Positions 21,567 to 23,731 of a stretch of 64,000 bases of DNA are shown piece by piece; position 1 is the stretch's first letter; every line of letters begins with the position of its first letter. The DNA comes from Escherichia phage ECO111 5-P. The notes below the pieces were generated by a model that was not told the DNA's origin, did not search any database, and saw only the letters and a program-made list of their open reading frames with translations. The position numbers and the translations under genes are program-made. The stretch is taken from sequence record OR844765, one strand, 5' to 3'.

Positions 21567-22283
21567 ATGGGAAAACATAACACAATGAAATATATAAAAG
21601 CCGCAGATTTTCAAACCGCATTTAAAGCAGTCAATCGTGAAATTTTAGAAAACCCCGAATTCGTAACTAATTCTCGTATTGGACGTTGTAATGAAATCGG
21701 GTCCATGACAGTAGTTGTTGACAATCCATCATCATTCAAAATGACCGACCCACGTATTAACCGCATCTCTTATGAATATGCCGAAGACTTCTGGAAGTTT
21801 ATGATTTCTGGTGGTACTGATGCAGAAGAAGCGTTTAAGGCATATCCTAATGTCGCTAAATTTATTTCTAAACCTAAATCAGACGCTTTGCCTGCAAACT
21901 TCAACACTTTCTACGGTCCTCGCATTGCGGCCCAATTACCAGCTCTTCTAAAAGAACTTAAAGAGAAACCTAACTCTCGAAGAGTTGTGTTCCAAATTCT
22001 AGAAAGTTCTGATCAGGCTTTGCTTGATTCGGACGAAACACTTGAATATCCATGTACTGACTCAGTGACTTATTATATTCGTGATGGTAAGCTTTATACC
22101 CACTGCCATATGCGTTCTCAGAACTGTGCTGTTGTTATGCAGTTGGATTTTTATCTCCAAGGAAAATTACTTCATTATATCGCTAACGAATGCGGTGTAG
22201 AAGTTGGTGATTATACTCATACCATGGTAAGTGCCCATGTGTTTGAACGTGATTTTGATTATGTTAAAGGATTCCTTGACTAA
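21567..22283 (+). CDS. 42: dCMP hydroxymethylase gp42 (thymidylate-synthase fold)
   Basis: 238 aa; thymidylate-synthase-like catalytic block PCTDSVTYYIRDGKLYTHCHMRSQN; position between gene 43 and uvsX. Confidence 0.8.
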   Translation: MGKHNTMKYIKAADFQTAFKAVNREILENPEFVTNSRIGRCNEIGSMTVVVDNPSSFKMTDPRINRISYEYAEDFWKFMISGGTDAEEAFKAYPNVAKFISKPKSDALPANFNTFYGPRIAAQLPALLKELKEKPNSRRVVFQILESSDQALLDSDETLEYPCTDSVTYYIRDGKLYTHCHMRSQNCAVVMQLDFYLQGKLLHYIANECGVEVGDYTHTMVSAHVFERDFDYVKGFLD

Positions 22284-23182
22284 TGGCTATTTTCCGCGTA
22301 CCAATCTTGAGTATGCGGTCTTATGAAACTGGACAGTATGCTATCCTTAAGGATGGCAACTTCCAACTTCATTTGCACCGTGCTAATCCAGGTGATGTGA
22401 TTACATATCCACGTAATGCATCTGATATTAAAGAATGTGAACGTCTTTTCCCGGAATTTAAGTTTGTTCCATTATGGTATAAAGATAACGCGTATAACAC
22501 TCGTAAATATTTCTGGTCTGAAAATGAATTCGTGGTTGATTCATTAATTGCTTATTATGATTGTGATTTTCTAATAACAGATATCACTGGTTATGACGGC
22601 GCTTTTGATGTAGAATTCAATTTCAATATCACTGCAGACCCTAATAAACCACGTTTTTATATTGACGAATTCTTAAAAACTGATATGTTGTCGGTTAATC
22701 GTTCACTTCAAACTACTGTGTTGAATGAACGTCAAAAAGAAGTGCTGGTTAACGCAGGTGCAGATGGTAATAAGATTATCGTAACGCAGAAAGTTATACG
22801 TCCTTCCATCATGCAGCGTCTTGTAGGTGATTTGGCTCCTATTCATCTAGATGGTATTTTTCATCCATTTCGAATTAGTGACCCGTGCTATCGTTTTGAA
22901 CAAGTGGTTGAATGTGCAATTCAATTAGGTCAACCGCTTTATATAACCGATCCAAATAATAGCTTTGACAGAAATAAGTATCCTGAAGAAGCGCTGATTC
23001 GAATTTTTAAACCAACTAAAACTGAGTACTATCAAATTCTTAAAGGACGACCGAAGATTCAATATTTCGAAAATCCTGAAGAAGTATTCCATCCAGGTCT
23101 TGGTGAGTTCATCTACTTTAATGCTTTAATTTCTTCACCGTATAATATACCTAAATACGAAGATGTCGTAATCGAGGAATAA
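22283..23182 (+). CDS. Hypothetical protein (299 aa) at the T4 beta-glucosyltransferase locus; candidate DNA-modification enzyme
   Basis: TAATG overlap with gene 42; no recognisable similarity to T4 beta-gt; function inferred only from position. Confidence 0.6.
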   Translation: MAIFRVPILSMRSYETGQYAILKDGNFQLHLHRANPGDVITYPRNASDIKECERLFPEFKFVPLWYKDNAYNTRKYFWSENEFVVDSLIAYYDCDFLITDITGYDGAFDVEFNFNITADPNKPRFYIDEFLKTDMLSVNRSLQTTVLNERQKEVLVNAGADGNKIIVTQKVIRPSIMQRLVGDLAPIHLDGIFHPFRISDPCYRFEQVVECAIQLGQPLYITDPNNSFDRNKYPEEALIRIFKPTKTEYYQILKGRPKIQYFENPEEVFHPGLGEFIYFNALISSPYNIPKYEDVVIEE

Positions 23183-23731
23183 ATGGCTAAAATTATTTTA
23201 GTAGACGGCCCGGATAATGCTGGTAAAACAACTTTCATTAATGACATAATGGAAATTAGTGAAAGATATGTAAAGATTGATTTCCCTAAACGAACAGTTG
23301 ATGGACGTTTCGATGTTAAGTCTCGAAATGAAGTTGGCTGTTTCGAAACGATGTTGAATTATTTAGACCCTACTAAGATTTATCTGTTAGACCGTGGATA
23401 TATTAGTAACTGGGTTTATGGACGTATTCGACAAGATGCGGACTCGGTTCTTGACGTTTATGAACAGGATTATGTTCGTCTTTGCCAAAACCATGATGTG
23501 TTCACAATTATTTTAACACGTAACGAAATGACTGAAAGTTTTGAAGACGACCTTATTACTTTGTCTTCATTCGGTTTTAATACAGTCATTTCACATTTTG
23601 AAGAGTTTGCAATTCATAACAAAATCCAAACGTATCAATTACTTAATCATGATGGTGCTAACAAAGTTATAGGATTTAATGCAAGCGAACGTAATGGTTT
23701 GATTACAGAAATCATCAAATGGGCTCGTTAA
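23183..23731 (+). CDS. P-loop kinase, thymidylate/dNMP-kinase-like
   Basis: 182 aa; Walker A GPDNAGKTT at residues 9-17; LDRGY motif resembling the TMP-kinase DR(Y/H) motif; SD GAGGAATAA. Confidence 0.6.
   Translation: MAKIILVDGPDNAGKTTFINDIMEISERYVKIDFPKRTVDGRFDVKSRNEVGCFETMLNYLDPTKIYLLDRGYISNWVYGRIRQDADSVLDVYEQDYVRLCQNHDVFTIILTRNEMTESFEDDLITLSSFGFNTVISHFEEFAIHNKIQTYQLLNHDGANKVIGFNASERNGLITEIIKWAR

Follow-up and report, generated by a model that had tools for sequence, protein, structure and literature searches.

A conserved glycosyltransferase-kinase pair in the T4 beta-gt slot of an RB69-like phage, and its probable part in arabinosyl-5-hydroxycytosine hypermodification of DNA

Which enzymes occupy the slot of the T4 beta-glucosyltransferase gene (beta-gt), between a thymidylate-synthase homologue and uvsX (Thomas 2018, PMC6024577), in Escherichia phage ECO111 5-P, and on what substrates would they act? 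In the 64,000-nt stretch of record OR844765 analyzed here (the window), the slot is taken by a gene for a 299-aa protein, and the order on the + strand runs from the thymidylate-synthase homologue (21567..22283) through the 299-aa ORF (22283..23182) and a 182-aa ORF (23183..23731) to uvsX (23830..25002). A sequence-only reading of this DNA regarded the locus as novel. The gene pair is real but already published: the phage is an RB69-like Mosigvirus (98-99% nucleotide identity) whose gene map matches that of RB69 ORF for ORF, and the locus at 22283-23731, which shares 98.3% nucleotide identity with RB69, corresponds to ORF047c/046c/045c, genes of RB69-type DNA arabinosylation that are in print as part of an arabinosylation module (Thomas 2018, PMC6024577; Lee 2026, PMC13326640). 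Some 150 sequenced Mosigvirus genomes contain it at 95-100% identity, and 153 phage records matched at 95-99%. GC content across the cluster is uniform (0.34-0.40), and a compositional trace of recent transfer is therefore absent. Scanning the entire window for Rfam families and tRNAs returned no matches, and promoter and terminator scans of 21200-23900 returned sites that were not above shuffled-sequence level, such that operon boundaries cannot be claimed from them.

The three genes are tightly coupled. At the 5' junction (GACTAATGGCT), the upstream stop codon (TAA) and the ATG that starts the 299-aa ORF overlap as TAATG (22281..22285, + strand), which bears out the start-coupling and the exact ORF coordinates first read from the DNA; at the next (GAGGAATAAATGGCT), the TAA of the 299-aa ORF abuts the ATG of the kinase gene with zero spacer (23180..23185, + strand), and a GAGGA ribosome-binding site lies 5 nt upstream. 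To judge from their homologues, which form 138 protein clusters for the 299-aa ORF and 27 for the 182-aa ORF, and from the residues invariant among them, both are real genes and not chance ORFs.

The upstream gene bears directly on which base is modified. Its 238-aa product (21567..22283, + strand; RB69 gp48) is a thymidylate-synthase homologue (Pfam Thymidylat_synt, E 2.3e-15), and had been taken for gene 42 of T4. That identification does not survive: the protein is about 98% identical to PDB 9iqc/9ir2/9iqu, and carries Asn at the position of E. coli ThyA residue 169 (MRSQN) and Asp at 177, which are diagnostic residues, the D169N signature having been validated experimentally (Lee 2026, PMC13326640). 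The gene thus encodes a flavin-dependent 5-hydroxy-dCMP synthase and not a T4 gene 42-type dCMP hydroxymethylase, and hydroxymethylcytosine (hmC) and hm-dCMP are therefore not available as substrates. Published work on RB69 DNA, comprising NMR, mass-spectrometry and 18O2 data, describes mono- and di-arabinosylated 5-hydroxycytosine; in RB69 and other Mosigvirus DNA the arabosyl group is ether-linked to 5-hydroxycytosine without a methylene bridge, and the 'ara-hmC' assignment of 2018 has since been corrected. The DNA base here is arabinosyl-5-hydroxycytosine, not hmC. The proposal that the pair replaces T4 beta-gt with a new hmC-DNA glycosyltransferase and an hm-dCMP kinase placed the locus correctly in the beta-gt slot and named the right enzyme classes, but given both the synthase upstream and the chemistry that refutes it, this proposal can scarcely be right.

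The 299-aa product (22283..23182, + strand, ATG start) is the orthologue of RB69 ORF047c+046c ('arabinosyltransferase 1'; PHROG 3891, phrog_3891 match at E 3e-156), from which it differs by a one-base indel. An extra T in the RB69 record splits ORF047c/046c, an artifact attributed to sequencing error (Lee 2026, PMC13326640); the window frame is intact at 299 aa, and the BFVD matches Q7Y591 and Q7Y592 represent the two halves of the protein at 99% identity. Beyond that extra T, there is no substantive difference between this protein and RB69 gp46:47, Acinetobacter phage DLP3 gp79 or Thanatos TH1_063. Classification from sequence reached just an unannotated PHROG: Pfam (E <= 0.1) and NCBIfam gave no match, phmmer and a 49-sequence profile retrieved nothing relevant from the PDB, and no homology to T4 beta-gt was detected, in keeping with the earlier observation that the ORF has no recognizable beta-gt motifs. 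It was structure prediction alone that resolved the class of this protein, sequence searches having failed. The AF2 model (pLDDT 95) shows a pair of Rossmann-like beta/alpha/beta domains separated by a cleft, in agreement with a GT-B (GT4-like, retaining) fold, the kind of result that the sequence-only reading had suggested looking for. In the 49-sequence alignment 34 residues are invariant, and R197, K246 and H270-P271-G272 are conserved throughout the 49 homologues. When an EX7E-type acidic pair was sought in the C-terminal domain, position 275 proved acidic in all 49 (E in 41, D in 8), and position 267, eight residues upstream, was mostly K or T. A non-enzymatic structural role was rejected on the strength of the fold together with the invariant active-site-type residues.

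The 299-aa protein is accordingly a predicted glycosyltransferase acting in DNA-base modification. The suspected new hmC-DNA glycosyltransferase was therefore right as to class, but the enzyme is not new, its predicted acceptor is 5-hydroxycytosine in place of hmC, and its predicted sugar is arabinofuranose. Orthology to the RB69 gene, the adjoining ThyA homologue with Asn169, and the presence of UDP-arabinofuranose genes in the same genome are all consistent with the first transferase of the arabinosyl-5-hydroxycytosine pathway. No activity of either the 299-aa transferase or the 182-aa kinase is reported in the accessible literature.

The sugar-supply genes lie a short distance upstream, all on the + strand. 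The first step towards UDP-arabinofuranose is ascribed to a putative arabinose-5-phosphate isomerase (17182..17817; RB69 gp55; SIS domain, KpsF/GutQ/KdsD NCBIfam match, phrog_5670), followed by a putative bifunctional sugar kinase/nucleotidyltransferase (17999..19684; RB69 gp52:53, AfhE-like; NTP_transferase domain and kinase-like C-terminus) and a HAD-type phosphatase (19669..20070; RB69 gp51, AfhF-like; TIGR01689 capsule-biosynthesis phosphatase, E 4e-13). The roles of the AfhE-like enzyme, for which He 2026 is cited, and of the AfhF-like phosphatase are as given in Lee 2026 (PMC13326640); the nucleotidyltransferase domain is credited with UDP-arabinose synthesis in phage HY126, and the AfhE-like C-terminus is assigned as the arabinose-5-phosphate kinase. 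A U32-family protein (20128..21288; RB69 gp50) completes this stretch, with a Peptidase_U32 match at E 7e-11, a weak UbiU match and ten invariant Cys. These genes bear on a different function proposed for the Thanatos homologue TH1_063, which is reported to form UDP-xylose from UTP and xylose-1-phosphate in vitro, and which transferred no sugar to any acceptor offered (DNA, dCMP or dCTP). By that precedent the 299-aa protein would be a UDP-pentose pyrophosphorylase, forming the nucleotide sugar and not transferring it. We consider this very unlikely: the predicted fold is GT-B with no nucleotidyltransferase fold, the cluster already has a dedicated nucleotidyltransferase domain, and the 299-aa family also occurs in loci that have no sugar-activation genes nearby (L034-L047). 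Further, negative transfer by TH1_063 is expected, because the acceptors tested were unhydroxylated cytosine compounds.

Both T4 glucosyltransferases are absent, as the sequence-only reading maintained. Besides the 299-aa protein not being a beta-gt homologue, the interval between gene 55 (6226-6801) and gene 47 (7789-8808), at 6802..7788 on the + strand, has no alpha-gt-sized gene and holds only ORFs of 57-107 aa, of the a-gt.2 to a-gt.5 type; their RB69 counterparts are annotated a-gt.5, a-gt.4, a-gt.3 and a-gt.2, and a-gt itself is missing there too. The T4 alpha- and beta-glucosyltransferases are nonetheless like the 299-aa enzyme in being phage GT-B proteins that use a UDP-sugar to glycosylate a 5-substituted cytosine. 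The phage still has another DNA glycosyltransferase, of 366 aa (44591..45691, + strand), between gene 39 and rIIA. This second DNA arabinosyltransferase (RB69 ORF003c/gp3 on the RB69 map) is near-identical to the solved 'phage HY126 glycosyltransferase' (PDB 9iqz, E 4e-247). It shares about 11% identity with the 299-aa transferase, and differs from it in length (366 vs. 299 aa), in locus and in proposed role, in that the gp3/HY126 type is proposed to add a second arabinose to the arabinosylated base on DNA, and the 299-aa enzyme the first to the base.

The 182-aa protein (23183..23731, + strand, ATG start) is the orthologue of RB69 ORF045c (PHROG 761), and has the P-loop kinase motifs originally recognized in it, GPDNAGKTT at residues 9-17 and LDRGY at 69-73. 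Across 23 homologues G9, D11, N12, G14, K15, T16, D70 and R71 are invariant. PF02223 was not reported at E <= 0.1, TIGR00041 scored 16.3 bits (cut-off 83), and a profile search of the PDB gave E 0.004 at best, over the P-loop region only. In its predicted structure (pLDDT 87) every one of the best fold matches is a nucleoside-monophosphate kinase, and fold, P-loop and Asp-Arg pair together are those of thymidylate kinases. The protein differs from thymidylate kinases proper (2plr, vaccinia 2v54 and S. aureus 4dwj, 8-19% identity) in that it is short, has a divergent lid with a single invariant Arg (R113) and a DD pair that is likewise invariant, and belongs to a family confined to phage 5-hydroxycytosine gene clusters; this gene context argues for a substrate of the 5-hydroxy-dCMP type over dTMP. 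A kinase dedicated to the modified-nucleotide pool had been proposed, and a thymidylate-kinase-like enzyme tied to the modified-nucleotide pathway is upheld, but hm-dCMP, which is absent given the 5-hydroxy-dCMP synthase upstream, is not.

P-loop kinases reportedly act on a DNA base hydroxyl in other phage hypermodification pathways, and like the 5-hmdU DNA kinases of phages that hypermodify thymidine, the 182-aa protein might phosphorylate the 5-OH of 5-hydroxycytosine in DNA or else an arabinose phosphate, in place of a nucleoside monophosphate. That seems highly improbable, as the nearest folds are all nucleoside-monophosphate kinases and the thymidylate-kinase DR motif is invariant; UDP-sugar transfer requires no activated acceptor; the role of arabinose-5-phosphate kinase is already given to the AfhE-like C-terminal domain; and loci that lack arabinose genes still have the 182-aa kinase. 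A relocated orthologue of T4 gene 1 was also considered, and rejected for want of homology to gp1 (RB69 gp159, PDB 1dek). The T4 gene 1 dNMP kinase is likewise a P-loop nucleotide kinase that serves the modified-cytosine pool of T-even-type phages, and 5-hydroxy-dCMP is phosphorylated by RB69 gp159, which leaves the need for a second kinase unexplained.

Comparison across phages ties the two enzymes to one another. The transferase occurs in 348 phage records against 343 for the kinase, and both show the same spread over host genera. Among 47 related loci, defined by transferase identity of at least 33% and enough flanking DNA, every one has a kinase homologue, in 36 cases as the gene immediately after the transferase, and the great majority of those with upstream DNA available have a ThyA-like gene there. 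The pairing is kept in non-arabinose contexts too (L034-L047, L002, L004); in PolIII-type phages, where a ThyA homologue was not detected within 4 kb, the pair adjoins a U32 gene. A transferase-kinase fusion, sought as evidence of coupling, was not found; the long ORF of locus L053 (551 aa) is a fusion of HAD phosphatase and transferase. In this comparison the pair forms the invariant core of all 5-hydroxycytosine glycosylation modules, and it is the best-conserved part of the system.

Together, these findings make it probable that both genes of the interval specify conserved enzymes of the RB69-like arabinosyl-5-hydroxycytosine DNA hypermodification pathway. The thymidylate-synthase homologue would convert dCMP to 5-hydroxy-dCMP, kinases would raise this to the triphosphate, and the polymerase would insert it instead of dCTP, while the genes at 17.2-20.1 kb would convert ribulose-5-phosphate to UDP-arabinofuranose. 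The 299-aa GT-B enzyme would use UDP-arabinofuranose to place the first, base-proximal arabinofuranose on the 5-OH of 5-hydroxycytosine, and the 366-aa transferase (44.6 kb) would add the second arabinose. The 182-aa protein would be an ATP-dependent nucleoside-monophosphate kinase of the 5-hydroxy-dCMP branch, most likely converting 5-hydroxy-dCMP, or a derivative thereof, to the diphosphate. RB69 orthology, both predicted folds, the conserved catalytic-type residues and the tight three-gene coupling were established in this analysis; the DNA chemistry, hydroxylase activity, UDP-arabinofuranose synthesis and later arabinose transfers on DNA were established by others. The first transfer by the 299-aa enzyme, its acceptor (DNA or mononucleotide) and the substrate of the kinase are what we infer.

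The choice of acceptor matters, since the order of events might be reversed, with the 299-aa enzyme arabinosylating free 5-hydroxy-dCMP, the adjacent kinase phosphorylating arabinosyl-5-hydroxy-dCMP, and the polymerase using the glycosylated dNTP. A kinase of the T4 gene 1 type would then refuse the bulky arabinosyl-5-hydroxy-dCMP, hence a specialized kinase. Such pre-replicative arabinosylation is conceivable but rather unlikely. We know of no glycosylated dNTP that is a natural polymerase substrate, and to our knowledge the characterized phage DNA glycosyltransferases, for example T4 alpha-gt and beta-gt, are all post-replicative. In its favor, the pair persists whichever candidate hydroxylase accompanies it and whether or not arabinose genes are present, and 343 phage genomes keep the kinase although some of them, RB69 and DLP3 at least, have a gene 1 type kinase as well; adjacency, however, is equally expected if two enzymes of the same pathway work at different steps. 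The acidity of the transferase (pI 5.1; 4.8 for its N-terminal acceptor domain) is a weak pointer to a nucleotide acceptor, but the DNA-acting second transferase is not basic either (pI 6.2), and pI therefore cannot separate the two acceptors. DLP3 transferases tried singly, the orthologue gp79 among them, did not arabinosylate 5-hydroxycytosine-containing DNA in vitro, and the mononucleotide option was left open (Lee 2026, PMC13326640); a missing partner or missing conditions may account for that negative result, and DLP3 gp76/gp77 were shown to act post-replication (Lee 2026, PMC13326640).

Were the first arabinose indeed added before replication, it would be the first natural case of sugar-modified dNTP incorporation; it would explain the second kinase in phages that already have one of the gene 1 type; and action of the pair at the nucleotide level would change the textbook picture, in which glycosylation of phage DNA always follows replication. 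Whichever acceptor is used, the assignments have corrective value, as labels such as "dCMP hydroxymethylase", "thymidylate kinase" and "hypothetical protein" mask an arabinosyl-5-hydroxycytosine pathway in about 150 Mosigvirus genomes. This pathway governs how phages resist restriction and CRISPR and how sensitive they are to type IV systems such as BrxU/GmrSD, and is thereby relevant to phage therapy and phage engineering.

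The locus belongs to the already described arabinosyl-5-hydroxycytosine system of RB69-type phages, contrary to its description in the sequence-only reading as novel. On the plus strand, a 238-aa thymidylate-synthase homologue (21567-22283) overlaps the 299-aa transferase (22283-23182) in a stop/start junction (GACTAATGGCT), and the transferase stop abuts the start of the 182-aa kinase (23183-23731; GAGGAATAAATGGCT), close 5' of which lies a GAGGA ribosome-binding site. The ORF listing and sequence bear out the open reading frames, TAATG coupling and kinase motifs (GPDNAGKTT and LDRGY) first noted here. 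Downstream lie uvsX (23830-25002; T4_UVSX_C, E 1e-38), then a homologue of gene 40, then gene 41; minus-strand ORFs at the locus are only 43-55 aa long, and Rfam and tRNA scans returned no match.

A megablast search with positions 21500-23800 matched 176 phage records, of which 153 are 95-99% identical, all of them E. coli and Shigella phages of the RB69-like Mosigvirus group. For the same stretch, the RefSeq annotation of RB69 lists RB69ORF048c ('similar to dCMP hydroxymethylase'), ORF047c (182 aa), ORF046c (116 aa) and, as the kinase orthologue, ORF045c ('thymidylate kinase'). The 299-aa frame is split into ORF047c and ORF046c in RB69 because record NC_004928.1 (~24947) holds a single extra T, placed by global alignment after window position 22826 and ascribed to sequencing error by Lee et al. 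2026 (PMC13326640); the halves have been carried into UniProt and BFVD as two proteins, Q7Y591 and Q7Y592. The rest of the window matches the RB69 map, running through nrdD, gene 55, the small a-gt.2 to a-gt.5 ORFs, genes 47, 46, 45, 44 and 43, sugar genes, the three-gene set, uvsX, genes 41 and 39, an ORF003c homologue and rIIA. Homologues of a-gt.5, a-gt.4, a-gt.3 and a-gt.2 (6707-7719, plus strand) are kept between genes 55 and 47, and alpha-gt itself is absent from this interval, the gap being clean rather than rearranged; the earlier observation on this interval holds, as does the claim that both T4 glucosyltransferases are missing.

Arabinose was found in RB69 DNA by Thomas et al. 2018 (PMC6024577), who proposed that ORF003c is the arabinosyltransferase and described a module of eight genes lying between gene 43 and uvsX. 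Lee et al. 2026 (PMC13326640) showed the base to be mono- and di-arabinofuranosyl-5-hydroxycytosine, not ara-hmC. In their work RB69 gp48 proved to be a 5-hydroxy-dCMP synthase that depends on flavin and uses O2, with Asn at E. coli ThyA position 169 as the diagnostic residue for this activity; a Durham Collection paper confirmed the same chemistry for another Mosigvirus. The 21567-22283 product is ~98% identical to PDB entries 9iqc, 9ir2 and 9iqu (238 aa, deposited as 'Thymidylate synthase'), which, like 9iqz, very probably come from the HY126 work. Aligned to E. coli ThyA, it keeps Cys146 and has Asn at 169 and Asp at 177, and a HMMER alignment to PDB 4dq1 places the same Asn at the 169-equivalent position. 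The gene thus bears the validated 5-hydroxy-dCMP synthase signature and is not, in function, the gene 42 it had been taken for; the hmC-DNA and hm-dCMP chemistry proposed alongside is therefore inapplicable. Many GenBank records label this synthase gene dCMP hydroxymethylase or thymidylate synthase.

By sequence, the 299-aa protein has no match in Pfam, NCBIfam or PDB, its single match being phrog_3891, which carries no annotation; a 49-sequence family profile likewise found nothing in PDB. The family comprises 138 clusters at 90% identity (lowest identity to the query, 36%), with no Pfam domain on any cluster listed. Among the 49 aligned members, 34 residues are invariant. Many of them, such as S10-M-R-S13, K23-D-G-N26, R33 and R74, fall in the N-terminal half, and the C-terminal half contributes R197, K246 and H270-P-G272; position 275 is always acidic. 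Structural matches include sucrose-phosphate synthase (6kih, 17.8), BshA (6n1x, 17.0), PimA (2gej, 15.7), the phage HY126 glycosyltransferase (9iqz, 14.8) and T4 alpha-gt (1y6f, 13.1), with T4 beta-gt outside the top 60, and Foldseek against BFVD returned viral GT1/GT4 proteins and both RB69 half-ORFs. On these matches, the protein is a predicted compact GT-B glycosyltransferase, detectable by structure prediction alone, and the assignment reproduces the published result. The suggestion that this ORF might encode a glycosyltransferase was right as to enzyme class. The UDP-xylose pyrophosphorylase activity published for the Thanatos homologue TH1_063 is hard to reconcile with a GT-B fold and with the presence of a dedicated nucleotidyltransferase in the cluster; the acceptors that gave negative transfer results for Thanatos were unhydroxylated.

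The kinase scores far under Pfam and TIGRFAM thresholds and matches PHROG 761, 'thymidylate kinase', at E 6e-45; its AlphaFold2 model has a pLDDT of 87, and G9, D11, N12, G14, K15, T16, D70, R71 and R113 are invariant across homologues. Its proposed thymidylate-kinase-like class is upheld by the PHROG match and by the invariant P-loop-region and D70/R71 residues, and the protein is a genuine, distinct nucleoside-monophosphate-kinase-like enzyme. That it is a T4 gene merely relocated is ruled out by comparison with RB69 gp1 (gp159, RB69 77877-78611; BLASTP E 0.62, hhalign probability 0.3%).

By tblastn, 348 phage records contain the transferase and 343 the kinase, with nearly identical counts per host genus (Escherichia 176/176, Acinetobacter 57/57, Klebsiella 26/25). 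Profile scoring was also applied to 58 loci from IMG/VR and to three metagenome contigs. Wherever the transferase was at least 33% identical and flanking DNA sufficed, a kinase homologue was present (47/47), and in 36 loci it stands immediately 3' of the transferase. In the other 11, from T4-like lineages (L009-L011, L015-L019, L024, L029, L030), it sits between a HAD phosphatase gene and a U32 or ThyA-like gene, and so has shifted within the cluster, never out of it. A ThyA-like gene lies upstream in every locus of this set with upstream DNA available, with Asn at 169 in the three metagenome contigs aligned (L002, L004, L005). L034-L047 and L004 hold ThyA-like, transferase and kinase genes, with arabinose genes absent within 4 kb; the kinase therefore tracks the hydroxylated base and first transferase, not arabinose. 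In more distant relatives (24-28% identity), which are non-T4 phages with a PolIII-alpha replicase (L054, L055, L059), an NTP pyrophosphohydrolase gene is followed in turn by those for the kinase, the transferase and a U32 protein, and ThyA homologues are lacking within 4 kb. Given the 47/47 co-presence and this persistence in L034-L047 and the PolIII-type phages, kinase and transferase together form the invariant core of the modules compared.

In an AT-rich IMG/VR contig (L053, 3452-5107), the transferase homologue makes up the C-terminal portion of a 551-aa protein with an N-terminus resembling KdsC/HAD phosphatase; its gene comes after an Asn169 ThyA homologue and ahead of arabinose-5-phosphate isomerase and AfhE-like (sugar kinase/nucleotidyltransferase) genes, with no kinase homologue within 4 kb. 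In a 122-kb metagenomic contig (L004, 4739-5293), a Flavodoxin_2 gene (FMN-dependent NAD(P)H oxidoreductase-like) stands immediately 5' of the ThyA-like/transferase/kinase triad, which fits a dedicated flavin-reduction partner of the flavin-dependent hydroxylase.

Among U32 proteins are hydroxylases that work independently of O2, namely RlhA (5-hydroxycytidine in rRNA), TrhP and UbiU/V. In the window, the product of the U32 'peptidase' gene (20128-21288, plus strand) has ten invariant cysteines, among them those of a C-terminal Cx4Cx3Cx2C motif, and its best NCBIfam match, a weak one, is UbiU; Lee et al. 2026 (PMC13326640) label its RB69 counterpart, gp50, a 'sugar or heterocycle reductase'. 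The stop codon of the window gene overlaps (ATGA) the start of a 79-aa ORF (21285-21524, plus strand; RB69 ORF049c), which lies ahead of the 5-hydroxy-dCMP synthase gene and matches no Pfam or NCBIfam family. The homologues in PolIII-type phages (L054 4954-6051; L055 4947-6029; L059 4885-5973) are 46-50% identical and directly follow the kinase-transferase pair, in loci that, as noted, lack a ThyA homologue within 4 kb. The U32 gene may provide an oxygen-independent route to 5-hydroxycytosine, complementing the O2-dependent flavin enzyme.

The published arabinosyl-5-hydroxycytosine pathway is the best-supported reading. The ThyA-like enzyme would convert dCMP to 5-hydroxy-dCMP, which would be phosphorylated to the triphosphate and built into DNA; the 299-aa enzyme would then transfer the first arabinofuranose from phage-made UDP-Araf to a presumed DNA acceptor, and a 366-aa enzyme (44591-45691) would add the second. 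The 182-aa kinase has a putative role in the 5-hydroxy-dCMP branch of the nucleotide pool. Work by others established the chemistry of the DNA, the hydroxylase, the synthesis of UDP-Araf and the later transfers on DNA; our analysis adds orthology, folds, conserved residues and genetic coupling. The main text of Lee et al. 2026 (PMC13326640) describes no successful assay of gp46:47 or gp45, the kinase appearing there as a table entry without further discussion, and reports the DLP3 orthologue gp79 by itself to be inactive on 5hoC DNA. This negative assay, the strict conservation of the kinase-transferase pair, and the retention of the kinase alongside a gene 1 type kinase active on 5hodCMP, all speak for the main rival, a pathway in which 5-hydroxy-dCMP is arabinosylated before replication and then phosphorylated by the dedicated 182-aa kinase, an order of events we consider rather improbable. 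The remaining interest of the locus lies in the acceptor of the first transferase, and in the universally co-inherited kinase.
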